Virus record (IMG/VR): IMGVR_UViG_3300030613_000004
Strand: one strand, 5' to 3'
Source of the DNA: a virus
DNA: 45,752 nucleotides
Within the stretch, counting starts at the first letter, position 1. Every line of letters begins with the position of its first letter. Below the pieces are notes generated by a model. It made no database searches and was not told where the DNA came from. It was given only the letters and a program-made list of their open reading frames with translations. Of this stretch, positions 5,059-45,752 are shown one piece after another. Made by a program: the position numbers and the translations under genes.

Positions 5059-5345
5059 CTGATGCGATCACAGAGGCACAGGCGGCGCTGGAGGAGGCAC
5101 TGGGCCTAGCTAGATACCGTGGGGCAGACGCGCTCGATGCACTGCCACTTGCCCGCAAGCTGGCGCTGGTGGTACACGACGCCTGCGCTGAGGCCAGCAC
5201 CTGTAACGAGCGGCCGGAGCGGTTCTTCGACCCCTGCGTCCACAACGAAGGGATAGAGCCGGGGACGCGCGGCACCCGTATCTGCCGGCTGGCTATCCGC
5301 GAGCGGCTGCTAGCGCCAGGCGAGGCCAGACATCGTGCGCCGTAG
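5055..5345 (+). CDS. hypothetical protein
   Basis: ATG 5055 follows GAGGAGGAG (5041-5049). It converges on the recombinase 3' end and overlaps it by 36 nt. Confidence 0.45.
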   Translation: MTDAITEAQAALEEALGLARYRGADALDALPLARKLALVVHDACAEASTCNERPERFFDPCVHNEGIEPGTRGTRICRLAIRERLLAPGEARHRAP

Positions 5346-6116
5346 CCGCTTGGTGGTTAGCTTGCCACGTGCCGCCATCAGGCAGTCCGCCACCATCTGC
5401 CCCTGCTCCATGACGGTGGACTCCCCGTTGATGTACCTGGCAGTGGTATCCACGCGACAGTGCCCGAGGAGCTGCATCAGGCTGATGACATCGGCTCCGT
5501 TCTCGTGCATGGCGGTCGCGTAGGCGTGTCTCAGCATGTGTGGGCTAACGTGAAACCCCAACCGAGAGTCCAGCGCCCGGAGCCGGTCGCGGACCTGTTG
5601 GGTGCTCAGGCTGAAGACAGCCGCTCGGCCACCCTCTGCGCCTGCTTCTCCGTGTCGAAGAACCCCAGGCTGCCACCGGGGAACACCGCCCGCCATCCCC
5701 AAGACGTGCGGATCGCCGCGCATATCGTCGTGGGTGCCCCTAGAGGGCTCTGTGGTGGCGCTGGCGTGGCCTTGACCTTCGCTGGTGATGTCGGAGCCGT
5801 CGTTCTTTTCATCACAGATTCCCCCAGACTCGCTTTCTCGCTGCGCCTTCCATGACGCCAGCGCCATTGTAGCGGGTCGCCCGATGGGGCACACCCGCGT
5901 CTTGCGCCCCTTCCCTGTCACCCGGATGGTGCCCGCCTCCAAGTCTACGCAGTCCCACGTTAGCCCCACGAGTTCAGCCACACGACAGCCCGAACCGTAG
6001 CAGACTTCACAGAATACCCGCGTCTCGCCCGTGGCGACTTCGAGGAGCCGGCGCACGTCGTCGAGAGAGAGGTAACGCCGGGAGCGGTGTTGGTGGTAAG
6101 CCGAGAGTTGTTTCAC
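5310..6116 (-). CDS. Xer-like tyrosine recombinase: catalytic domain only, with a ~70-aa insertion
   Basis: GSGCRVAELVGLTWDCVDLEAGTIRVTGKGRKTRVCPIG is the Arg-containing Xer-like block. SPHMLRHAYAT...LLGHCRVDTTARYI supplies H-x-x-R, H and Tyr. There is no SAM-like core-binding domain before the catalytic domain. Confidence 0.8.
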   Translation of the reverse strand: MKQLSAYHQHRSRRYLSLDDVRRLLEVATGETRVFCEVCYGSGCRVAELVGLTWDCVDLEAGTIRVTGKGRKTRVCPIGRPATMALASWKAQRESESGGICDEKNDGSDITSEGQGHASATTEPSRGTHDDMRGDPHVLGMAGGVPRWQPGVLRHGEAGAEGGRAAVFSLSTQQVRDRLRALDSRLGFHVSPHMLRHAYATAMHENGADVISLMQLLGHCRVDTTARYINGESTVMEQGQMVADCLMAARGKLTTKRLRRTMSGLAWR

Positions 6117-6331
6117 GCCTTCGCCTCCCGTACGGCCTCTTGGGCCTGCTCATAGGCTGAATTATCCTTGTCAACTCGCGCAGCCATCGTCCAGCACGCA
6201 CCGTCCTCAAATGTACATACGTCGGCACCAGCCAGCAGCGCCTCCAGCGCGGCGAGGAGCTTGGCGTTGACGCGCTCCAAGTCCTCACATCGCGCTTCGT
6301 AGTCCATGATGTCCGGTGTGTGCTCGCTCAT
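6113..6331 (-). CDS. hypothetical protein
   Basis: ATG 6331 is preceded by GAAAGGTAAGG on the minus strand. The stop overlaps the recombinase start. Confidence 0.5.
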   Translation of the reverse strand: MSEHTPDIMDYEARCEDLERVNAKLLAALEALLAGADVCTFEDGACWTMAARVDKDNSAYEQAQEAVREAKA

Positions 6332-6409
6332 GACCTTACCTTTCTGCGGCTGATTCCCGCGAACGCTCCCCGGCGTTCCCACTCTTGCCGGTCCCACTGA
6401 CTGACGCGC

Positions 6410-6928
6410 CTAGCCGATGTCCCAGTCGGCCTCGTCATAGCCGGGAAGGGCATTGATGGCTGCATGCCGCAGGGCTTCGCAGAACGCTTTGGACTCGCTG
6501 CCCTCCCAGTCTGGGTGCTCGCAACTCTGGTACTCGTAGCACGCGATGGCCTTTAGGACTGCGACGGGCTCCAGGAGCGGCGTGTGCATTGCGACATGGA
6601 AGGAGCTGAACGTCGCCTCTGCCAGCGAGAAGCCGACCGGCCCTGGTAGGTCCGTGCTGTCCATCGGCTCATCATACCGATGACATACGCTGCGGACATT
6701 CTCGGTTAGCAGCATCCGCCCCGTCTCGTTGAGCGTGTCGCTGTCCAGCTCTCGCCGGCACCGCCGCGCGGTGGCCACCGATGTGGGACCCCAAACCTGG
6801 CCCCGTTCGAAATCGCTATCTGCCCTAGCCTCAGGCGCGAGCCAATGGAAGCCCCCCTGGCGGCCGTAGGTCATGGCCGCCTTCAGCATGGCCTCGATGT
6901 GTTGCTGGCTAACTACGAATGCACTCAT
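6410..6928 (-). CDS. hypothetical protein
   Basis: The internal ATG at 6928 (MSAFVV...) is preceded by GGAGAAGGGGAAGGGA. 172 aa, no motif I can name. Confidence 0.55.
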   Translation of the reverse strand: MSAFVVSQQHIEAMLKAAMTYGRQGGFHWLAPEARADSDFERGQVWGPTSVATARRCRRELDSDTLNETGRMLLTENVRSVCHRYDEPMDSTDLPGPVGFSLAEATFSSFHVAMHTPLLEPVAVLKAIACYEYQSCEHPDWEGSESKAFCEALRHAAINALPGYDEADWDIG

Positions 6929-7011
6929 TGTCCCTTCCCCTTCTCCAGAGCTATCGGCCCTGGCCCCTACCAGCGACTGTCGCAAGTAGGGGCGAGCGCC
7001 GAAGCGCCCCG

Positions 7012-7188
7012 CTAGTAGTCTGATTCCTTCTCGCCCATGTCATGGACGATTCTCGTGAGTTCCTTTGCGAGCTCAGCGATGTCGGCAAACGGATTGTAGT
7101 TGTTTGCGACTCTGTAGAGGGTGGACCGATATTCGCGGGCCATCTTCTCCAGGTGACCCGCCATGTCCTTTGCAGTCTGTGGTTTCAT
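7012..7188 (-). CDS. hypothetical 58-aa protein (below the ORF-track cutoff)
   Basis: Minus strand reads AGGAGAAGAACG-ATG. Translation MKPQTAKDMAGHLEKMAREYRSTLYRVANNYNPFADIAELAKELTRIVHDMGEKESDY. It fills the gap in the leftward cassette. Confidence 0.5.
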   Translation of the reverse strand: MKPQTAKDMAGHLEKMAREYRSTLYRVANNYNPFADIAELAKELTRIVHDMGEKESDY

Positions 7189-7263
7189 CGTTCTTCTCCT
7201 GCCCTATCATCCGCCCGCTGCCATCAGTGGGCGAGTGAGGCGGCAGGAAGCCGCCCGGGGGCG

Positions 7264-7563
7264 CTAGGATACTTTGGCTATCTCTTGCATCACGCACACA
7301 GCCTGGGGTTTGGTCGGAGCCCAGATCAGGCGGTACATGAGGACTGTTGGCGGTAGCATGTCCCGGATGTGTTCCCACGGCTCGTTGAACGTCGGGTAGG
7401 CGTTGAACCGTGGCCCCTTCGAGGGATAGGCTGGGCGGTCGTAGTAGGCCAGGTACTCGCGGACGCGCTCGCCGTCCTTAGTGGTGATCCATATCGGCCC
7501 GCCCGTCTCACGATCCGCATCGGCAGGGTCAATCCTGGTCAAGTCTAGTATCGTCAGTGTCAT
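7264..7563 (-). CDS. hypothetical protein, first gene of the leftward cassette
   Basis: ATG 7563 is preceded by GGAGGG. Confidence 0.55.
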   Translation of the reverse strand: MTLTILDLTRIDPADADRETGGPIWITTKDGERVREYLAYYDRPAYPSKGPRFNAYPTFNEPWEHIRDMLPPTVLMYRLIWAPTKPQAVCVMQEIAKVS

Positions 7564-7582
7564 CACACCCTCCATAACACAA

Positions 7583-7791: not shown

Positions 7792-8223
7792 ATGACCACC
7801 GACTTGCAGCCCCAGCCCGATAGCCTCGCCCTAGACCCGAAGCTTGAACAGGCCGCGAAAGTGATTGCATGGGGCGGCACTAGACAGCGCGCAGCCCAGG
7901 TTGCCGACTGCTCGCAACGCTACCTGTACTACCAGCTCGCTAATAACGAGCCCTTCCAGCAACGTATCGCTGAACTCCAGGACGGCGAAACTTCCCGCCT
8001 CACTCGCATCGCCAGAGGCAAGGGCGGCATCGCTCTCTCCCTCCTCGTCGGCATCGCTAAGGGCCACATCCAAGCTAACCCTGAACGCCTACGCGCTATC
8101 TTCCGCCTCCTCGATTACTCCCTCGGTTCCCCTTCCCAGGCTGGCGCTAACCTCGCCGCTGAAGTCCAGGGCGCAGACGGTAGCATCATCCGCGTCATGG
8201 TAGGCCATAGGCCTAAGACGTAG
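7792..8223 (+). CDS. HTH protein, putative terminase small subunit
   Basis: 143 aa. TRQRAAQVADCSQRYLYYQL is HTH-like. It is the first gene of the late block, upstream of terL. The call rests on position and size only. Confidence 0.45.
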   Translation: MTTDLQPQPDSLALDPKLEQAAKVIAWGGTRQRAAQVADCSQRYLYYQLANNEPFQQRIAELQDGETSRLTRIARGKGGIALSLLVGIAKGHIQANPERLRAIFRLLDYSLGSPSQAGANLAAEVQGADGSIIRVMVGHRPKT

Positions 8224-8520: not shown

Positions 8521-9003
8521 ATGCTAGAGACGGACCTAGGCTGGGCAGCGGGCTTCATTGATGGAGAAGGCAGTATTTCCATCTTTCGCTGCAATGGCAA
8601 GACTTGGCGGTCGGCGGACAAGTATCGACTGGAACTAGAGGTCACCCAATGCGACACGTTACCGCTGGAGCGGTTAAAGGAAATTCTCGGTGGGTACATC
8701 GAGCCTCGTCGACAGCGGTTAAACCCAAACTGGAGTCCGGCGTGGCGCTGGAAGCTAAGGGGTTGGACAACTATCCCAGTGCTGCAACTGCTGATGCCGT
8801 ATCTGGTGGTAAAGCGGCCTCAGGCTGAGTTGGCTCTCAAGTTCTATCGGAATCGCCAAACAATGGCTGGTGCGGGCGCATGGTACAAGGCTGAGATGGG
8901 AAAACTTAACGTGAGGGGTCGTGCTCGGCACGTCGCGGGATCAGGTGTGGGGGCTACGGTCAGGTTACATCAGCAGGCCGAGTTGAATTTAGAGAGAATC
9001 TGA
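8521..9003 (+). CDS. LAGLIDADG-family homing endonuclease (single motif)
   Basis: LGWAAGFIDGEGSISI near the N-terminus is the LAGLIDADG motif. 160 aa. Free-standing between the terS-like gene and terL. Confidence 0.75.
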   Translation: MLETDLGWAAGFIDGEGSISIFRCNGKTWRSADKYRLELEVTQCDTLPLERLKEILGGYIEPRRQRLNPNWSPAWRWKLRGWTTIPVLQLLMPYLVVKRPQAELALKFYRNRQTMAGAGAWYKAEMGKLNVRGRARHVAGSGVGATVRLHQQAELNLERI

Positions 9004-9190: not shown

Positions 9191-10582
9191 GTGCTACAGG
9201 CCGCGCCTTTGCCTGTCTACTTCGAGTTCGAGCCCCTTCCGGGTACGGCCCAGGAAGCGTTCTGGTGGGCCTGTACCAACCCCGTCCTCACTGAGCGCCC
9301 AGGGTTCCCGGCGCTCATTGGTGCGCCTGGCGTGGGCAAGACCCACTGCGGCGGTGCCGCCAACATGATGAACGGCATCGAGTATCCCTCTGTCTATCAG
9401 GTGCTGGCCCCCTCCTACCGTAACCACATGCTGATGGCGACTCTCCCCAAGTACAAGGAGTTTCTCTGGTCCCTACACCAGCAGAGCCTCAAGGAGTTCA
9501 AAAAGCCCTTCATCAGCCTCACGGCGGACGGGAAGATATACCACGAGACGAAGCAGCAGATAGAGCTGACGAACGGCAGCGTCTTCTACTTCCGGTCCAC
9601 CGACGACCCGGACAAGCTCTACGGCGGCACCATGGGAGGCATTCACGCCGACGAGGCGGGGCTCATGCCCGAGCAGGTCGTGGCCATCCTCCCGGCCCGT
9701 CTCCGGGCGCCGGGCACACCCCAGCAGTTCATCGTGACGTTTACACCCAAGGGATCGGGGAAGCACTGGACGAACCGATGGTATGGGCGACAGGTGAAGC
9801 AGGCCAAGGAAGCCCTGGCGCGAGGGGAGCCGGGGTTAGGAATAGACAGGGATTACCCCGTCTTCGGCCTCAACATGAAGGACAACCCCAACAACTCGGC
9901 CCGCATGATCGCCCGTCTGGAAGAGGAGTCCAAGACCAACCCCTTCGCCCGCCAGGAACTCTACTGGGACTGGATGGACGTGGGAGGGCTCATCTACGCC
10001 GCCTTCCAGGAATCCACCCACGTCCGGCCCAAGCCCCTTGACCTCATCTTCACCCGCTACGCGGCGGGCATCGACTTCGGCATGAGTTCGCCTACCGTGA
10101 TTGAGGTGGCGGCCGAGGACACGAACGGGAGACGGTGGTTCACGGGCGAGTTCTCGCGGACCTTCTGTTCGGGTGAGCAGCTCCTCAAGGCCTGCTTCGA
10201 CACCATGGATCAGTATCCGGGCATCCGGTTCTACTGCGACCCCCACGACCCCGCCAAAATCGACTGGCTGCGCCGCAACATGGTGCCGGCCGTCAAGGCC
10301 GACCCTTCTCTAAACAGCAGGGTTACGCTGACTTGGGATTACCTCACCATTAAGCCCGATGGCCTTCCCGGACTCTTCTACACCCCCGACTGCGTGAACC
10401 TCATCGCGGAGGCGGAGTCCTGGTCATGGAAGGCCACGGCGGGACCGGGGGGGCAGGTGACATATGACGACGTGGAGCCCCACGCCCACCACTCGGACGC
10501 GGCGGGATACGCCATGGTGGCCCTGGGACGGACATTCGAGCCCATGCGGGTCGTGTGGGGCAGGGAGAAGGTGACAGCCTGA
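9191..10582 (+). CDS. terL: terminase large subunit
   Basis: ALIGAPGVGKTH (Walker A), GGIHADEAG (Walker B-like) and AAGIDFG (start of the nuclease domain). 463 aa, directly upstream of the portal-sized gene. Confidence 0.85.
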   Translation: MLQAAPLPVYFEFEPLPGTAQEAFWWACTNPVLTERPGFPALIGAPGVGKTHCGGAANMMNGIEYPSVYQVLAPSYRNHMLMATLPKYKEFLWSLHQQSLKEFKKPFISLTADGKIYHETKQQIELTNGSVFYFRSTDDPDKLYGGTMGGIHADEAGLMPEQVVAILPARLRAPGTPQQFIVTFTPKGSGKHWTNRWYGRQVKQAKEALARGEPGLGIDRDYPVFGLNMKDNPNNSARMIARLEEESKTNPFARQELYWDWMDVGGLIYAAFQESTHVRPKPLDLIFTRYAAGIDFGMSSPTVIEVAAEDTNGRRWFTGEFSRTFCSGEQLLKACFDTMDQYPGIRFYCDPHDPAKIDWLRRNMVPAVKADPSLNSRVTLTWDYLTIKPDGLPGLFYTPDCVNLIAEAESWSWKATAGPGGQVTYDDVEPHAHHSDAAGYAMVALGRTFEPMRVVWGREKVTA

Positions 10583-37965: not shown

Positions 37966-38787
37966 GTGCTAGGGCTTGACGCTTCATTCGCCACGATTAA
38001 TCAGGCGACTTTCACACGGATGAAGGGTCTGGGCTACGGCATCTTCATCGAGGATTGCTGGACTGGGGGCTACGCTAACAACCCCAGCCTCCGCGCCGTG
38101 GCCGAACCCAACCTACGGAATGCCCAGGCAGCGGGCCTCATCATCGCCATCTACTCGAATGCGAATCCTTGGTATGACGTCCAAACGTCAGTCAGGGAGA
38201 CGAAGGCCAACGCCGGCGGTATGTGGGATGCGGTCAAGGTCGTGGCGGTGGACCTGGAGATCGCGGGGACGACGGAGCAACAGGCGTTCGACCTGGGGCT
38301 GGCCTTTGAGGCTGAGGGCAAGAAGGTCTGCGTCTACACGGCCCGCTGGGTCCACGACAGAGACGGCAATCCGCCCTGGACTCGGCTGGCTCGATGGCCT
38401 CTTTGGGTGTGCCAGGCCGACAAGAAGCCCGACATCGGGACGACCCGCCCGGTCGCATCCTGGTCAGCAACTCAGATTATAGGCAAGCAGTTCGACACGG
38501 ACACCGGTTTGTTCGGCAAGGCCGTAGACCTCAACATGTTTGAGGAAAGTTTCTTCGAGGAGGAAGACATGAACGAGACCCAACTGACCGCTATCCTGGC
38601 CGTGTTCAATGTCCTGGCGACCCCGCGTTCTGCGGGCCAGCCCCTTGACAGCTACTTCGACCCGCTGCCCGACGAGACGTGGGCCGCTGCCTGGCGCTGG
38701 CTGGGTGCGCCTACGCCGCCGCCGCAGCCCTCTATTGGTAGCGGGCGCAGATGGCTTGGACTCATTGCTGGGGATTTCAGGCGGTGA
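37966..38787 (+). CDS. endolysin, GH25-like muramidase
   Basis: GLDASF..IN...F..MKGLGYGIFIE, VAVDLEIAG (D-x-E), PLWVCQ, W..TQIIGKQFD....GKAVDLNMF fit the GH25 pattern. Confidence 0.65.
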   Translation: MLGLDASFATINQATFTRMKGLGYGIFIEDCWTGGYANNPSLRAVAEPNLRNAQAAGLIIAIYSNANPWYDVQTSVRETKANAGGMWDAVKVVAVDLEIAGTTEQQAFDLGLAFEAEGKKVCVYTARWVHDRDGNPPWTRLARWPLWVCQADKKPDIGTTRPVASWSATQIIGKQFDTDTGLFGKAVDLNMFEESFFEEEDMNETQLTAILAVFNVLATPRSAGQPLDSYFDPLPDETWAAAWRWLGAPTPPPQPSIGSGRRWLGLIAGDFRR

Positions 38788-39105
38788 GCGGGGAACCGCC
38801 CCATCGAAGTCCCTTTTCCCGGCTTATGGTTTGGGCCAGACCGAAAGATAAGGGTCCTAGGCCCGTGGCCGGAGCGCATCCGCCTGAGGAACAGCCAGAC
38901 CAGGGAGGTCAGCCCCATCTACGTAAGGGCTGGGTCCTCGCGGTCGCCCTTCCCTGCGGCGGGCTCGTCCTCTGTGAGCCGTGGTGGGTTCTTAGGCCGG
39001 GCGCTGCGCCGGTTGTGGAGTTCGAAGCGATAGGCGGGTTTCAGAACTAATCGCTTACCTAATAGGAGAATCGCCATACCTGAAGTAAGCTGCATCTATT
39101 CCCTC

Positions 39106-39134
39106 TTGACAGCGTTTGCCGCAAGTGCCACAAT
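39106..39134 (+). promoter_or_regulatory. Early promoter-like element
   Basis: TTGACA (39106-39111), 17 nt, CACAAT (39129-39134). ATG 39144 is only 9 nt downstream and has no SD. Confidence 0.5.
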
Positions 39135-39143
39135 CACACCGTT

Positions 39144-39479
39144 ATGCGGACGGTTAGAATCGGTGAAGTCGCCAGGGCACTCGGCCTGTCGGATGAGACG
39201 GTACGGCGGGCGGTCAAGCGCGGCGACTTCCTAGAGCCGTACAGAACCCCCGGAGGTCAAGTCTTCTGGGACTGGGAACGGTTAGAGCCGTGGCTCACTG
39301 AGCACGGCTACCCCTTCCACCCTCAGATGTCCCCGCCACACGCAATGGCCGCTGGGCATTGCAATCCATCGAATCAATCGTCCGGCGCGCCGAGTGGCTT
39401 GTCGAAGAATACGGCTTCGGCTCGGCGACGCTCTTCCAGAGGAGACTCAGAGTCAACAAGGCATTCGCCGAGTTCTTAG
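39144..39479 (+). CDS. excisionase/MerR-type HTH protein; only the first ~55 codons look genuinely coding in this frame
   Basis: MRTVRIGEVARALGLSDETVRRAVKRGDFLEPYRTPGGQVFWDWERLEPWL fits the HTH_17/Xis pattern. The Ser/Arg/Pro-rich tail overlaps a better-looking frame. Confidence 0.6.
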   Translation: MRTVRIGEVARALGLSDETVRRAVKRGDFLEPYRTPGGQVFWDWERLEPWLTEHGYPFHPQMSPPHAMAAGHCNPSNQSSGAPSGLSKNTASARRRSSRGDSESTRHSPSS

Positions 39480-39544
39480 TAGAGGAGTTGACGAATGGCG
39501 GAATCTTGCCGCGAACCCCACCGCGATGGCAAGAACCGAAATGA
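39359..39544 (+). CDS. FtsK-gamma-like winged-helix protein (TTG start, or fused to the upstream HTH)
   Basis: AEWLVEEYGFGSATLFQRRLRVNKAFAEFLVEELTNGGIL aligns by eye with E. coli FtsK gamma [40 protein letters not shown]. Confidence 0.55.
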   Translation: MQSIESIVRRAEWLVEEYGFGSATLFQRRLRVNKAFAEFLVEELTNGGILPRTPPRWQEPK

Positions 39545-39557
39545 CCGAACGGGCTAC

Positions 39558-39586
39558 TTGACAGAACATATAAAGTGTCCTGTTAC
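39558..39586 (+). promoter_or_regulatory. Weaker promoter-like element
   Basis: TTGACA (39558-39563), 17 nt, TGTTAC. The -10 is poor. Confidence 0.3.
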
Positions 39587-39763
39587 TAGCCAATCGCGGA
39601 CTAGTCTTTCTGGTATGAGTCCACCGTCGCGGGACAGCCTGGAAGGTGGGGCCAAGCTATCCCTGCAGGCGGTGGGCTCTTGTTGTGCCCCGCCCGTCGC
39701 CGTCTCCGGTTCTGGCGTAGTGTCCCAGGACCGGGGCGGCGGCACTACTTCTAGGAGCACGTA

Positions 39764-39958
39764 ATGAGCCCGCGCCTTCCACCAGAAGCCAAACGCCGCG
39801 TCTCGCTGACGCTCCTGAGGAACTACATCAATCGTGAGTGGCGACCAGGAACGTACGGACACAGCGTCGCCCAGAGGATATTGCGGGAGGCCGAGCAAAT
39901 AGCACGGGATGAAGAGAAGGCCGAGATTCTGGTTCTTCAGCAGAGGTTTCTCCCATGA
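39764..39958 (+). CDS. hypothetical protein
   Basis: TAGGAG precedes the ATG. Confidence 0.5.
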   Translation: MSPRLPPEAKRRVSLTLLRNYINREWRPGTYGHSVAQRILREAEQIARDEEKAEILVLQQRFLP

Positions 39959-40173
39959 CCCCGCGTGAGCCCGCCTACCGCCGCGCCGTTATCCGCTACG
40001 AATACTGCGGCCATTGGTGGGAAAGCGACTGCAACACCTGGTGGGAAACACCACCCGCCGGCGCTGTCGTCTCCCACGTCCTGGCGGACTGTACGCGCTG
40101 CCGGAAGGCGAAGGGCGAGGACAAGCACGGGCGGCTGCCGGACTTCGATTGGGGGGACTTCTCATGGCTGTAA
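39955..40173 (+). CDS. hypothetical Cys/Trp-rich protein
   Basis: ATGA overlap with the upstream gene. Confidence 0.5.
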   Translation: MTPREPAYRRAVIRYEYCGHWWESDCNTWWETPPAGAVVSHVLADCTRCRKAKGEDKHGRLPDFDWGDFSWL

Positions 40174-40478
40174 ACGAGACAACACCGGGACCGTGGACAG
40201 TTAAAGGGCCATCTCCAGGAGGATCGGATATCGACGATGGCGGAGACTACGCCATTCTAGATGAAGAACGGGCCATCCTCGCCGAAGTCTACCGGAAGGT
40301 TGCACGGAGCGGCGAGCGCCCTGCTGAGGCCAACGCCCACCTGATTGCCGCCGCCCCCAAGCTCCTCGCTGCGCTGAAGGCGCTCGTGCCACTGGCTGAA
40401 GCGGCATGGAGGTTGCTGCCCGACAGACGACCTCTTCTGGCGCAGGCCCGCGAGGCCATCAGGGAAGCAACCTCATGA
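40164..40478 (+). CDS. hypothetical protein
   Basis: GGGGGGA lies 6 nt before the ATG. The ANAHLIAAAPKLLAALKAL block recurs in many phage proteins of unknown function. Confidence 0.55.
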   Translation: MAVNETTPGPWTVKGPSPGGSDIDDGGDYAILDEERAILAEVYRKVARSGERPAEANAHLIAAAPKLLAALKALVPLAEAAWRLLPDRRPLLAQAREAIREATS

Positions 40479-40693
40479 CTGTCCTCTACCCGCCCCTGCC
40501 TGGTAGCGTCTCTGTGGGTCCCCGCCTCCAGAGGGCGCTACCAGGTATGCGGGCGGTTCGCCAGTGGCTACCGTGTCCGCGCTGTATCGGCGGGCAGATG
40601 GTAGAGCAGTGGGATGAGGCGGTCTGCCTTCAGTGTGGCTATCGACCGGTGACCTTGAAGAGACTCCCATACACGAGGGCGAAGTGGCAATAG
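40475..40693 (+). CDS. zinc-ribbon-like protein
   Basis: CPRC...CLQC. ATGA overlap. Confidence 0.5.
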   Translation: MTVLYPPLPGSVSVGPRLQRALPGMRAVRQWLPCPRCIGGQMVEQWDEAVCLQCGYRPVTLKRLPYTRAKWQ

Positions 40694-40701
40694 GAGGAAG
40701 C

Positions 40702-40890
40702 ATGAGTGAACTAGAGCGCCGCAAGTTGCTGGTAGACAAGTGGCTAATCCACGCTGAAGAAGCGGGCCACAACCTTGAGACAGCCCGACACGACGGCAAT
40801 CTTGCATGCACGTACATCATGTGTTGCGTCAAGGGCTGCAAGTGGGCGCACAGCCTGGCGCTGGAGAAGATGACGAAGGGGGAGTCATGA
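40702..40890 (+). CDS. hypothetical protein
   Basis: AGGAGGAAGC precedes the ATG. Confidence 0.5.
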   Translation: MSELERRKLLVDKWLIHAEEAGHNLETARHDGNLACTYIMCCVKGCKWAHSLALEKMTKGES

Positions 40891-41045
40891 GCAAGCAAGA
40901 TAACTACTGGCTGACCGTGGCCGGCCTGCTGGGCGTAGGCGCGTTCCTGTCGTTCCTGGCAGGGGAGCCCTGGCTGGGCGGGCTGGCGGGCGGGCTGGGG
41001 CTGGTGATGGTGGTGACGCCGGTGCCGGAGTGGTTCGATGGGTAG
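40887..41045 (+). CDS. 52-aa membrane protein
   Basis: ATGA overlap. Hydrophobic stretches WLTVAGLLGVGAFLSFLAG and GGLAGGLGLVMVV. Confidence 0.45.
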   Translation: MSKQDNYWLTVAGLLGVGAFLSFLAGEPWLGGLAGGLGLVMVVTPVPEWFDG

Positions 41046-45250: not shown

Positions 45251-45752
45251 CCCTGCACACGCCCCCGCTGTTCGGCTCGCTCTTCTCGGGCATAGGCGGC
45301 TTCGACCTTGGGCTGGAGCGGGCAGGATGGGAATGTAGGTGGCAAGTTGAAATCGACCCCTGGCGAAGACAAGTCCTTGCCCGACACTGGCCCGACGTGC
45401 CCCGATGGGGAGACGTGCGAACCTTTCCGAACACTGCGGGCACAGAGCCACCAAGACCCGTTCAACGAGGACTTGGTGTTGATCTCATCTGCGGCGGCTT
45501 CCCCTGCCAGGACCTCAGCGTCGCCGGCAAGCGGGCCGGACTTGCGGGGGAACGCAGCGGCCTCTTCTTCGAGTTCGCCCGCATCGCGCAGGAACTTCGG
45601 CCGACGTGGCTCCTCATCGAGAACGTTCCAGGGCTCCTTACTGCCTCTAAAGGACACGATTTCGCTGTCGTCGTGGATACGCTGGCCGACATCGGGTTCG
45701 GCCTGGCGTGGCGCATACTCGACTCTCAATACTTCGGAGTCCCACAGAGGCG
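45247..45752 (+). CDS. DNA (cytosine-5)-methyltransferase, N-terminal part; continues at 128..818 across the circular junction
   Basis: ATG 45247 overlaps the upstream stop (ATGA). Translation contains FSGIGGF (motif I), GGFPCQDLS (motif IV, catalytic Cys) and ENVPGL (motif VI). It is in frame with ORF 48..818. Confidence 0.9.
   Translation, partial: MTLHTPPLFGSLFSGIGGFDLGLERAGWECRWQVEIDPWRRQVLARHWPDVPRWGDVRTFPNTAGTEPPRPVQRGLGVDLICGGFPCQDLSVAGKRAGLAGERSGLFFEFARIAQELRPTWLLIENVPGLLTASKGHDFAVVVDTLADIGFGLAWRILDSQYFGVPQR
45626..45752. repeat. Terminal direct repeat, copy 2 (identical to 1..127)
   Basis: Direct comparison of the two window ends. Confidence 0.95.

Follow-up and report, generated by a model that had tools for sequence, protein, structure and literature searches.

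The question raised by positions 39144 to 39544 of the viral sequence IMGVR_UViG_3300030613_000004 (IMG/VR; 45,752 nucleotides, the whole stretch being called the window hereafter) is whether two overlapping open reading frames (ORFs) found there are two genes or one. ORF A (39144-39479) starts with ATG and encodes 111 amino acids, including an excisionase-type helix-turn-helix (HTH) domain; ORF B (39359-39544) starts with TTG, lies in the -1 frame of A, and encodes 61 amino acids that resemble the gamma domain of FtsK. This arrangement, which had been described in an earlier examination of the letters alone (the sequence-only reading), was confirmed. TTG 39359 is indeed the sole canonical start codon of the B frame upstream of the domain and is not preceded by a Shine-Dalgarno sequence; the B frame is open from 39302, following a TGA at 39299-39301. 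The sequence-only reading had presented ORF B in its headline as a stand-alone gamma gene and had named, as an alternative, a single HTH-gamma fusion made by a frameshift near 39300-39358. Comparative data agree with that alternative and place the junction at 39319-39337. ORFs A and B very probably constitute one gene with a conserved -1 frameshift, the downstream part of which encodes an FtsK-gamma-derived module, and TTG 39359 is most likely an internal leucine codon (coordinates of the features are collected in Table 1).

A first indication comes from the coding signal. In a codon-usage log-odds scan trained on the window's own long ORFs, frame A is the best frame up to about 39300 and frame B from about 39325 to about 39470, the switch occurring between 39310 and 39325. 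The counts of third codon positions occupied by G or C (GC3) that had been made by hand in the sequence-only reading are exact, with 21 of 39 codons in the tail of ORF A versus 42 of 61 in the gamma frame; reference values are 44 of 60 for the head of ORF A and 0.73 for five long genes of the window. The GC3 of the zero-frame tail from 39324 to 39479 is 0.57, and its codon score is poor. Codon usage and GC3 indicate that the Ser/Arg-rich tail of ORF A is not under coding selection, while the B frame is. A simple gene-calling score was passed by neither ORF alone.

Further evidence is comparative. Relatives of the locus were collected from different metagenomes and from IMG/VR (L002, L003/L004, L006, and L009), which makes five lineages including the window. 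L002 is a 24.6-kb contig whose gamma frame is 78% identical to that of the window, and L009 is a 40.7-kb viral contig that was found in IMG/VR by means of a DNA pattern for the motif EYG-x7-QRRLRV; the gene has the same syntenic early position in both. In all of these contigs (L002, L003, L004, L006, and L009), the HTH ORF and the gamma-like module show the same -1 offset as in the window. Identity of the HTH between lineages is 30-52% (87% in the close pair L003/L006), and that of the -1 translation is 41-82%, the latter being the better conserved of the two in every one of the 10 pairs but L003/L006 (both above 80%). Neither ATG nor GTG nor TTG is present in the gamma frame between the upstream stop codon and the domain in L002, L003, L004, and L006, i.e., in four contigs representing three lineages, and TTG 39359 of the window is replaced by CAA in L002. 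As, in addition, the distant homologues described below are in-frame fusions, the notion of a stand-alone gamma ORF had to be given up. What is conserved in the five lineages is the arrangement typical of programmed -1 frameshift genes, namely, a downstream domain in the -1 frame without a start of its own.

The pattern of substitutions is consistent with a change of frame at the junction. In comparison with L002 and L003, substitutions in the HTH part peak at codon position 3 of the zero frame; in the gamma part, they peak at position 3 of the gamma frame. Between the window and L002, the exchanges TCA/TCT (39323) and CGC/AGG (39341) as well as four changes at wobble positions beyond 39356 are synonymous when read in the gamma frame and nonsynonymous when read in frame A. 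Conservation of the gamma frame (Arg-Trp) reaches upstream of TTG 39359, also in the in-frame homologue L001. The length of the zero-frame tail varies (51, 50, 49, 23, and 26 amino acids), and the predicted fused proteins comprise 129-142 amino acids. The junction itself conforms to the pattern ACCCTC[AT]GA[AT]NNCCCCGCC (19 nt, 39319-39337 in the window), which occurs exactly once each in the window, L002, L003, L006, and L009. It is kept even in L009, the flanks of which have diverged beyond nucleotide alignment, and it is missing from L001. The zero-frame stop codon TAG at 39477-39479 is made up of a rare leucine codon of the gamma frame (TTA/CTA) and a following G. The window, L002, and L003 share its alignment position, which is occupied by CTG in L001; this may be coincidence or may reflect selection for ending the unshifted product.

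Two more distant types of homologue carry the module in a single frame. ORF 9734-10450 of L001 encodes a MerR/HTH_17 domain, then the gamma-like module, and then a C-terminal extension with a further HTH; the Joint Genome Institute (JGI) gene call for this ORF (P0003) began at an internal ATG. The 326-amino acid protein P0010, found on two independent contigs (L007, 3443-4423, and L008, 1833-2813), starts with a core-binding domain of the Phage_int_SAM_1 family, whose 32.6 bits exceed the gathering score of 22.3. An acidic linker leads from there to the gamma-like module, which is followed by a C-terminal HTH; a catalytic domain is missing. The gene for P0010 is located after tail-fibre-like genes and beside opposite-strand DUF429/DUF5656 genes, in the usual place of a prophage integrase. 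L001 (10170-10450) and P0010 (residues 225-300) have a common C-terminal extension, a helical ...L..W..LF..YA.LRG... segment followed by a short HTH, which is absent from the window, L002, L003, L006, and L009.

Beyond these, few relatives were recovered. A tblastn search of phages with the fused protein gave two weak HTH matches only, a word-indexed protein search with the first fused model gave none, and a later profile search gave four proteins only. Protein-pattern scans of IMG/VR and GTDB based on an early family alignment were without result, and the DNA pattern for EYG-x7-QRRLRV, when applied to genomes, returned cellular ftsK genes and chance matches only, no prophage among them. One candidate, L005, was rejected as a false positive, being a hydrolase-like ORF that contains WLVEEYG. 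The rarity of the family in public protein sets is explained by mis-calling of the gene: all public calls are either an HTH with a junk tail or a truncated gamma ORF. Since the site is C-rich and does not contain a heptamer, standard frameshift finders and gene callers would miss such genes.

For expression of the gene, the following scenario is considered the most probable. Ribosomes staying in frame would produce the 111-amino acid HTH protein with its junk tail. Ribosomes slipping back by 1 nt within ACCCTCAGATGTCCCCGCC would produce a 133-amino acid protein, in which a flexible linker, about 20 residues long, would connect the HTH with a three-helix FtsK-gamma-derived module. Two C-CCN sites are present in the junction element, C-CCT at 39320-39323 and C-CCG at 39332-39335. 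Slippage of the peptidyl-tRNA-Pro from CCU to CCC at the first site would be the most likely event; alternatively, it would slip from CCG to CCC at the second site, ahead of a Pro-Pro pair. According to the slip site, the junction peptide of the shifted product would be ...GYPFHPSDVPATR or ...QMSPATR. The second site is followed by another zero-frame proline codon, creating an invariant (S/A)-P-P, and Pro-Pro motifs are slow to translate. Silent variation between the two sites (TCA/TCT and GAT/GAA) favors the first one, the numbers being tiny. A short hop from CCU to a CCC 11 nt downstream may be another route. No conserved upstream stimulator resembling a Shine-Dalgarno sequence was seen by eye. 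Slippage as such is what we infer from the comparison of the lineages.

The N-terminal part of the protein is readily assigned, and the Xis-like HTH that had been recognized in residues 1-55 of ORF A holds, as a winged HTH of the excisionase/MerR type. In Pfam, it matches MerR (PF00376; E 2e-6, 27.9 bits) just under the gathering score of 28.2, and HTH_17 (PF12728; E 4.5e-5, 24.1 bits) just under that of 27, while the L001 orthologue exceeds both with 41.8 and 32.7 bits, respectively. A match to phrog_66, "excisionase and transcriptional regulator", has an E value of 6e-8. The AlphaFold model of the HTH matches BldC, RacA, gpNu1, and viral "Excise" proteins with root-mean-square deviations of 1.6-1.8 Å; the Foldseek template-modeling scores against BldC and the viral Excise proteins are 0.7-0.8.

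The likeness of the -1-frame module to the FtsK gamma domain, for which the sequence-only reading had claimed an alignment position by position, stands in part. FtsK_gamma (PF09397) is the sole Pfam family matched by the 61-amino acid ORF at E<10; the match (E 0.006, 16.7 bits), however, is below the gathering score of 30.6. Five of six family members individually have FtsK_gamma as their top or only family (best E 1e-4, all sub-threshold). A phmmer search of 1.84 billion representatives returned one true family member (P0003) and three bona fide proteins with tandem FtsK_gamma repeats at whole-library E values of 3e-5 to 7e-4; the further matches P0001, P0002, and P0007 were discarded as spurious and repeat-driven. 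With comparison sets that were partly picked by similarity to the query, hhalign aligned the family with true gamma repeats over 46 columns (probability 97.1%, P 5.6e-11), and in a pairwise BLASTP comparison with the C-terminal end of FtsK from Ktedonobacter robiniae, 21 of 51 residues (41%) were identical (E 6e-11). All seven family members best match FtsK of Chloroflexota, at 41-48% identity, and in a DNA-pattern scan of GTDB the signature EYG-x7-QRRLRV proved to be that of the cellular FtsK gamma of Ktedonobacteria/Thermogemmatispora, Bacillota, and Acidobacteria. Judged by these alignments, the module is a real but divergent FtsK-gamma homologue covering helices 1-3 only. It would have been captured from a host-type ftsK gene, and the hosts are probably Chloroflexota of the Ktedonobacteria type.

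The resemblance has its limits where DNA reading is concerned. The beginning of helix 3, which reads the FtsK-orienting polar sequences (KOPS), is changed from GY(N/S)RAAR to N/S/T-K/R-A/L-F/L-A-E/A-F/Y in all members, and the beta-wing (G..G.R.REVL) is absent; as the module ends about 12 residues past helix 3, a full wing is impossible. The best-conserved segment of the module is the family-invariant (Q/E)RRLRV, which aligns with Q1288-I1293 of E. coli FtsK in the turn between helices 2 and 3. In FtsK, residues 1289-1297 (RQFRIGYNR) of this turn constitute the contact to XerD and suffice to activate recombination (Keller et al., PMC5052618); R1289 is critical, forming a salt bridge to E184 of XerD, and KOPS is bound by the same surface (PMC5052618). 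RRLRV corresponds to the first five positions of this nonapeptide, with the equivalents of R1289 and R1292 being invariant.

With regard to a partner, only one tyrosine recombinase was found in the window; as had been stated, it lacks the N-terminal core-binding domain. Its catalytic residues are kept. It matches Phage_integrase in Pfam (E 4e-29, from residue 15) and the phrog_1 integrase family, without an arm-binding domain; in the translation, the motifs R, K, HxxR, H, and Y can be recognized. Between the region of the beta-hairpin lysine and the HxxR box, about 70 amino acids are inserted (approximately residues 95-165, rich in Gly, Glu, and Asp). The frame is closed 11 codons upstream of the GTG start. 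An N-terminal domain encoded upstream in another frame was considered and rejected, the ORFs 6113-6397 and 6410-6985 being without a SAM-like match. An upstream ORF (6113-6331) overlaps the integrase start by 4 nt and is not SAM-like either. Relatives of the integrase in IMG/VR are distant matches only, with no gamma-like gene in the flanks that were fetched. In L001, the gene for a full Xer-like integrase, with SAM_1 and catalytic domains, precedes the HTH-gamma gene by about 400 nt. This adjacency, the SAM fusion in P0010, and the catalytic-only recombinase of the window point to tyrosine recombinases as the context of the module.

On this basis, the long form would be a DNA-anchored adaptor that contacts a tyrosine recombinase, either a phage integrase without core-binding domain or a host Xer protein; the integrase of the window is a possible partner. 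Soon after induction or infection, the adaptor would govern integration or excision, and the frameshift would set the ratio between the plain DNA-binding form and the recombinase-contacting form. Recombinase contact and its consequence are what we infer from the conserved turn and the gene associations, and an accessory function in recombination is put forward tentatively, at somewhat less than even odds. For the explanation as a whole, i.e., a frameshifted HTH-gamma gene with the role of a recombinase adaptor, located as the first gene in the rightward early operon of a temperate phage, the chances appear to be even. A more far-reaching proposal, which we consider rather improbable, is that the family took the XerD-activating face of the host FtsK gamma domain without its KOPS reading and tethered it to an Xis-type HTH or to an integrase core-binding domain. 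The result would be an FtsK-independent licensing subunit and a two-component recombinase, with a non-canonical -1 frameshift at proline codons setting the dose and, in this way, adding a translational control point to the decision between integration and excision.

Several observations weigh against this interpretation. A slippery heptamer of the type X XXY YYZ does not occur in 39302-39358, and the search for a conserved stem-loop or pseudoknot downstream gave nothing convincing (RNAalifold, -11.9 kcal/mol; single-sequence z -1.1 to -2.5), RNAalifold reporting almost no covariation and two covarying pairs that are both outside the relevant helix. The fused product is a prediction from the sequence. 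The gamma frame of L009 has an internal ATG with GGAG 7 nt upstream, and this lineage may also make the gamma module alone. A sequence-profile search of the PDB with the family profile did not return FtsK, the best match being eS25 at E 0.8. Structural support is weak: the fused model has helices at 76-90, 95-102, and 106-118 (predicted local distance difference test (pLDDT) scores of about 77-84) and no wing, and the low-quality model of the isolated domain has two long helices and no match to a PDB fold. As the two predictions disagree, the winged-helix fold of the module is a putative one. The fold search with the fused model was dominated by the N-terminal HTH and hence is uninformative on the gamma fold; linker residues 59-74 are predicted to be disordered (pLDDT <50). 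The last four positions of the activating nonapeptide (GYNR) are not conserved. At the position of the acidic pair E183/E184 of XerD, the integrase of the window has PIGRPAT and that of L001 has LGGIALE, and the missing pair argues against a direct copy of the FtsK-XerD contact. The HTH-gamma gene is 11.4 kb away from the integrase gene on the circular map, and its position would fit an early regulator equally well.

Table 1. Coordinates of the HTH-gamma gene, its putative control elements, and the recombinase and terminase genes in the window
Feature	Position	Strand	Remarks
Sigma-70-type promoter-like site	39106-39134	+	TTGACA, 17-nt spacer, CACAAT; TG before the -10 box
Zero-frame coding part	39144-39323	+	HTH (residues 1-55) and start of the predicted linker, to Pro codon CCT 39321-39323
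Junction element ACCCTCAGATGTCCCCGCC	39319-39337	+	Candidate recoding signal
-1-frame coding part	39320-39544	+	Predicted linker (PSDVPATRNGRW) and FtsK-gamma-like three-helix module; stop TGA 39542-39544
Zero-frame tail (unshifted)	39324-39479	+	51 amino acids, Ser/Arg/Ala/Pro-rich; out-of-frame reading of the gamma module
TTG	39359-39361	+	Earlier-proposed start of a stand-alone gamma ORF
Non-coding element ACTTGACAGAACATATAAAG	39556-39575	+	12 nt past the gamma-frame stop
Tyrosine recombinase	5310-6116	-	Catalytic domain only; sole one found in the window
TerL	9191-10582		HNH endonuclease directly upstream at 8521-9003

The alternative that survives best takes this last point up. The frameshifted HTH-gamma gene might encode an early transcriptional regulator or DNA-organizing protein of the Cro, Cox, or BldC kind, which would have two DNA-binding modules and no role in recombination, the frameshift merely giving short and long isoforms that differ in operator specificity or oligomerization. 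The gene opens the early operon, directly behind a strong promoter-like site, with the same synteny in L002 and L009, and is far from the window integrase; its N-terminal domain is as similar to the regulators BldC, RacA, AlpA, and PrtN as to excisionases, and the conserved non-coding element past the gene could be an operator. Moreover, FtsK gamma itself binds DNA, and the basic turn corresponding to RRLRV also contacts DNA in FtsK (PMC5052618). Against such a regulator it has to be held that the positions by which helix 3 of FtsK reads DNA are now hydrophobic or acidic and that the wing is missing, and that the SAM-like fusion in P0010 and the adjacency to the integrase in L001 are independent links to recombinases. 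A purely regulatory role is regarded as unlikely, although a credible one.

That the locus comprises two separate genes after all, an HTH ORF ending at 39479 and a gamma ORF beginning at TTG 39359 or at another internal start, is improbable. TTG 39359 does exist, and an in-frame ATG is found at the equivalent position in L009, where GGAG precedes it, and in L001, where the JGI caller began P0003; separate FtsK_gamma-like ORFs have also been reported from other phages (PMC8190038). Yet the TTG has no Shine-Dalgarno sequence and is CAA in L002, a gamma-frame start before the domain is lacking from L002, L003, L004, and L006, and the tail of ORF A has non-coding codon usage and variable length. 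Further, conservation of the gamma frame extends upstream of the TTG (Arg-Trp; synonymous CGC/AGG), and the frame of L001 is continuous from the HTH onward.

A still smaller probability is given to a DNA-recognition subunit similar to a small terminase, with a gpNu1-type winged HTH and a gamma domain as in TerS of the Bacillus phages Sam46 and Sam112. The N-terminal domain matches the terminase small subunit family phrog_57 (E 0.0012) and, in Foldseek, lambda gpNu1; an FtsK_gamma domain at the N-terminus of a TerS is on record (PMC8190038), and no small terminase was recognized in the window, with ORF 7792-8223 (143 amino acids, no matches) as a positional candidate. On the circular map, however, about 15.7 kb separate the gene from TerL, and it opens the early region; a methylase and early genes come after it in L002, L006, and L009, and L001 has a Terminase_4 small subunit of its own elsewhere on the contig. 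Neither an oligomerization domain nor a Terminase_2-type domain is present, and the DNA-reading residues of gamma are not conserved. Finally, an assembly indel in a C-run or a pseudogenized fusion can practically be dismissed: the break adjoins CCCC runs at 39311-14 and 39331-34, where one missing base would restore a continuous ORF, and L001 has an in-frame version, but five diverged lineages, assembled independently, share the -1 offset, purifying selection acts on the downstream frame, the junction nucleotides are invariant, and the window is a circular assembly with a 127-bp overlap.

As for the setting of the gene, the window covers a complete circular genome, which measures 45,625 bp, bases 1-127 being repeated exactly at 45626-45752; the genome is circular, or circularly permuted, and derives from a k-mer-overlap assembly. 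Its G+C content is about 61%. Comparison of region 38000-41000 with GenBank phages at near-identity gave no match. Almost all genes are on the plus strand. Structural genes extend to about 37.8 kb, followed by a lysin-like gene at 37966-38787, and the early genes reach from 39.1 kb over the circular junction to about 5.3 kb, with the HTH-gamma gene at their head. They include genes for DUF5131, a DUF3987 primase/helicase-like protein, a C5 methylase, and an XRE-type HTH; the C5 cytosine DNA methylase gene appears to span the circular junction, the Pfam match being located at the start of ORF 48-818. A small minus-strand block (5310-7575) ends in the tyrosine recombinase. No tRNA was found in the window, L001, L002, L006, L007, or L008, so that a clue to the att site is missing. 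An Rfam search of the whole window returned no family, and PADLOC returned only the generic HTH model mad1. In relatives, a methyltransferase gene follows the HTH-gamma gene (L002, 6349-6984, with a DPPY motif; L006, 1268-1897, with a match to the MT-A70 family); in L002, its ATG overlaps the end of the gamma frame.

The promoter-like site upstream of the gene has 10 of 12 consensus matches, and the scanned region contains two such sites versus 0.3 expected from shuffled sequences. It ends 10 nt before ATG 39144, with no Shine-Dalgarno sequence in between, and an equivalently placed TTGACA/-10 pair is present in L002 (~5965-6003), L003 (~600-640), and L006 (~470-510). The distance from the promoter-like site to the ATG is 5-10 nt in all relatives, again without a Shine-Dalgarno sequence. 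The mRNA from which the gene is translated is probably leaderless or nearly so. Past the gene, the element at 39556-39575 is kept as ACTTGAC(A/G)GAAC(A/G)TATA in L002, L003, and L006 and as the variant CACTTCGCACTATATAT in L004 and L009. Its TTGACA-like and TATA-like parts are just 5 nt apart, which is not compatible with a standard sigma-70 promoter; it may be an operator, the next promoter, or a promoter of another type. Further downstream, a very stable nested GC-rich hairpin (39682-39748; -38.2 kcal/mol, z -3.8, none of 200 shuffled sequences being as stable) lies just upstream of the next ORF (ATG 39764), without a clear U-tract and without a match in Rfam. A comparable GC-rich palindromic stretch is found at the same place in L003, L004, and L006.

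Compared with FtsK gamma (PF09397; structures 2VE9, 2J5P, and 5DCF), the phage module is homologous in helices 1-3 including the signature EYG-x7-QRRLRV, and the equivalents of R1289 and R1292 in the turn contacting XerD and KOPS are invariant. It differs in lacking the translocase motor and in being fused to an excisionase-type HTH, as well as in its sub-threshold Pfam score, the changed helix 3, and the absent wing. The closest functional parallel would be XafT of TLC-phi, a phage-encoded XerD activation factor composed of an XRE-type HTH and DUF3653, without similarity to FtsK (PMC6744903). Both proteins have an HTH followed by a small module that could contact an Xer-type recombinase, both are encoded on temperate elements, and, provided that the proposed function is right, both would by the same logic make recombination independent of FtsK. 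The two are not homologous, the phage module described here being derived from FtsK, and Pfam scans of the HTH-gamma protein at E<10 gave no match to DUF3653 or XRE. TLC-phi does not encode an integrase and uses dif as its integration site; the window phage encodes a tyrosine recombinase. The function of XafT has been demonstrated, that of the module of the window is a proposed one.

Programmed -1 frameshifting that adds a C-terminal domain is known for orfA/orfAB of the IS3 family, for tau/gamma of dnaX, and for the phage tail chaperones G/GT. The HTH-gamma gene resembles IS3-type genes in having an upstream HTH ORF, a downstream -1 domain without a start of its own, and two predicted products per mRNA, an arrangement likewise kept among diverged homologues. 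In contrast to these, it is without a heptamer of the type A AAA AAG and has a C-rich junction (A CCC UCW GAW NNC CCC GCC), a stimulatory structure cannot be demonstrated, and the zero-frame product continues for 23-51 codons. The N-terminal fold and family are those of the recombination directionality factors (RDFs) of the excisionase/Cox/AlpA type (HTH_17, phrog_66), and the L001 gene adjoins an integrase gene. Classical RDFs are single-domain proteins of 55-100 amino acids that are usually encoded next to int, and we know of no RDF with an FtsK-gamma-derived C-terminal module or a frameshift.

The sequence-only reading had known of no description of a gamma mimic as an integration-control module of phages. 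This claim of novelty has to be narrowed: stand-alone FtsK_gamma-like ORFs in phages, and TerS of Sam46 and Sam112 with an N-terminal FtsK_gamma domain, are on record, their role being stated as unknown (PMC8190038). In these, too, a host-type FtsK gamma domain was captured and joined or juxtaposed to another DNA-binding function. They differ from the window module, which is divergent and wingless, in their Pfam E values of about 2e-27 and the kept DNA-binding residues, and have another partner domain; the window gene belongs to the early genes, not to a packaging module, and expression by frameshift has not been reported for the others. The joined excisionase-HTH/gamma module, on the other hand, appears to be new. 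A full-text literature search found no paper that links FtsK gamma to an excisionase and none on a frameshifted excisionase-type gene. Three aspects appear to be without precedent: the conserved non-canonical -1 frameshift by which a gamma module and an excisionase-type HTH are joined; the pattern of retention, in which the XerD/KOPS turn is kept and KOPS reading and wing are lost; and the links of the gamma-like module to integrase components by fusion and adjacency.

Summarizing, the locus would, if the interpretation is correct, represent a comparatively well-supported programmed -1 frameshift in a regulatory rather than a structural gene of a phage. For the FtsK_gamma-like genes of phages, it offers a concrete context, namely, fusion of the module with an excisionase HTH or, in relatives, with an integrase core-binding domain, or its location beside an integrase. 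The match of its best-conserved segment to the minimal XerD-activating peptide of FtsK makes the licensing of a recombinase apart from cell division, which XafT accomplishes with an unrelated fold, a testable proposition. It also points to Chloroflexota of the Ktedonobacteria type as the probable hosts of an otherwise unassigned group of phages.

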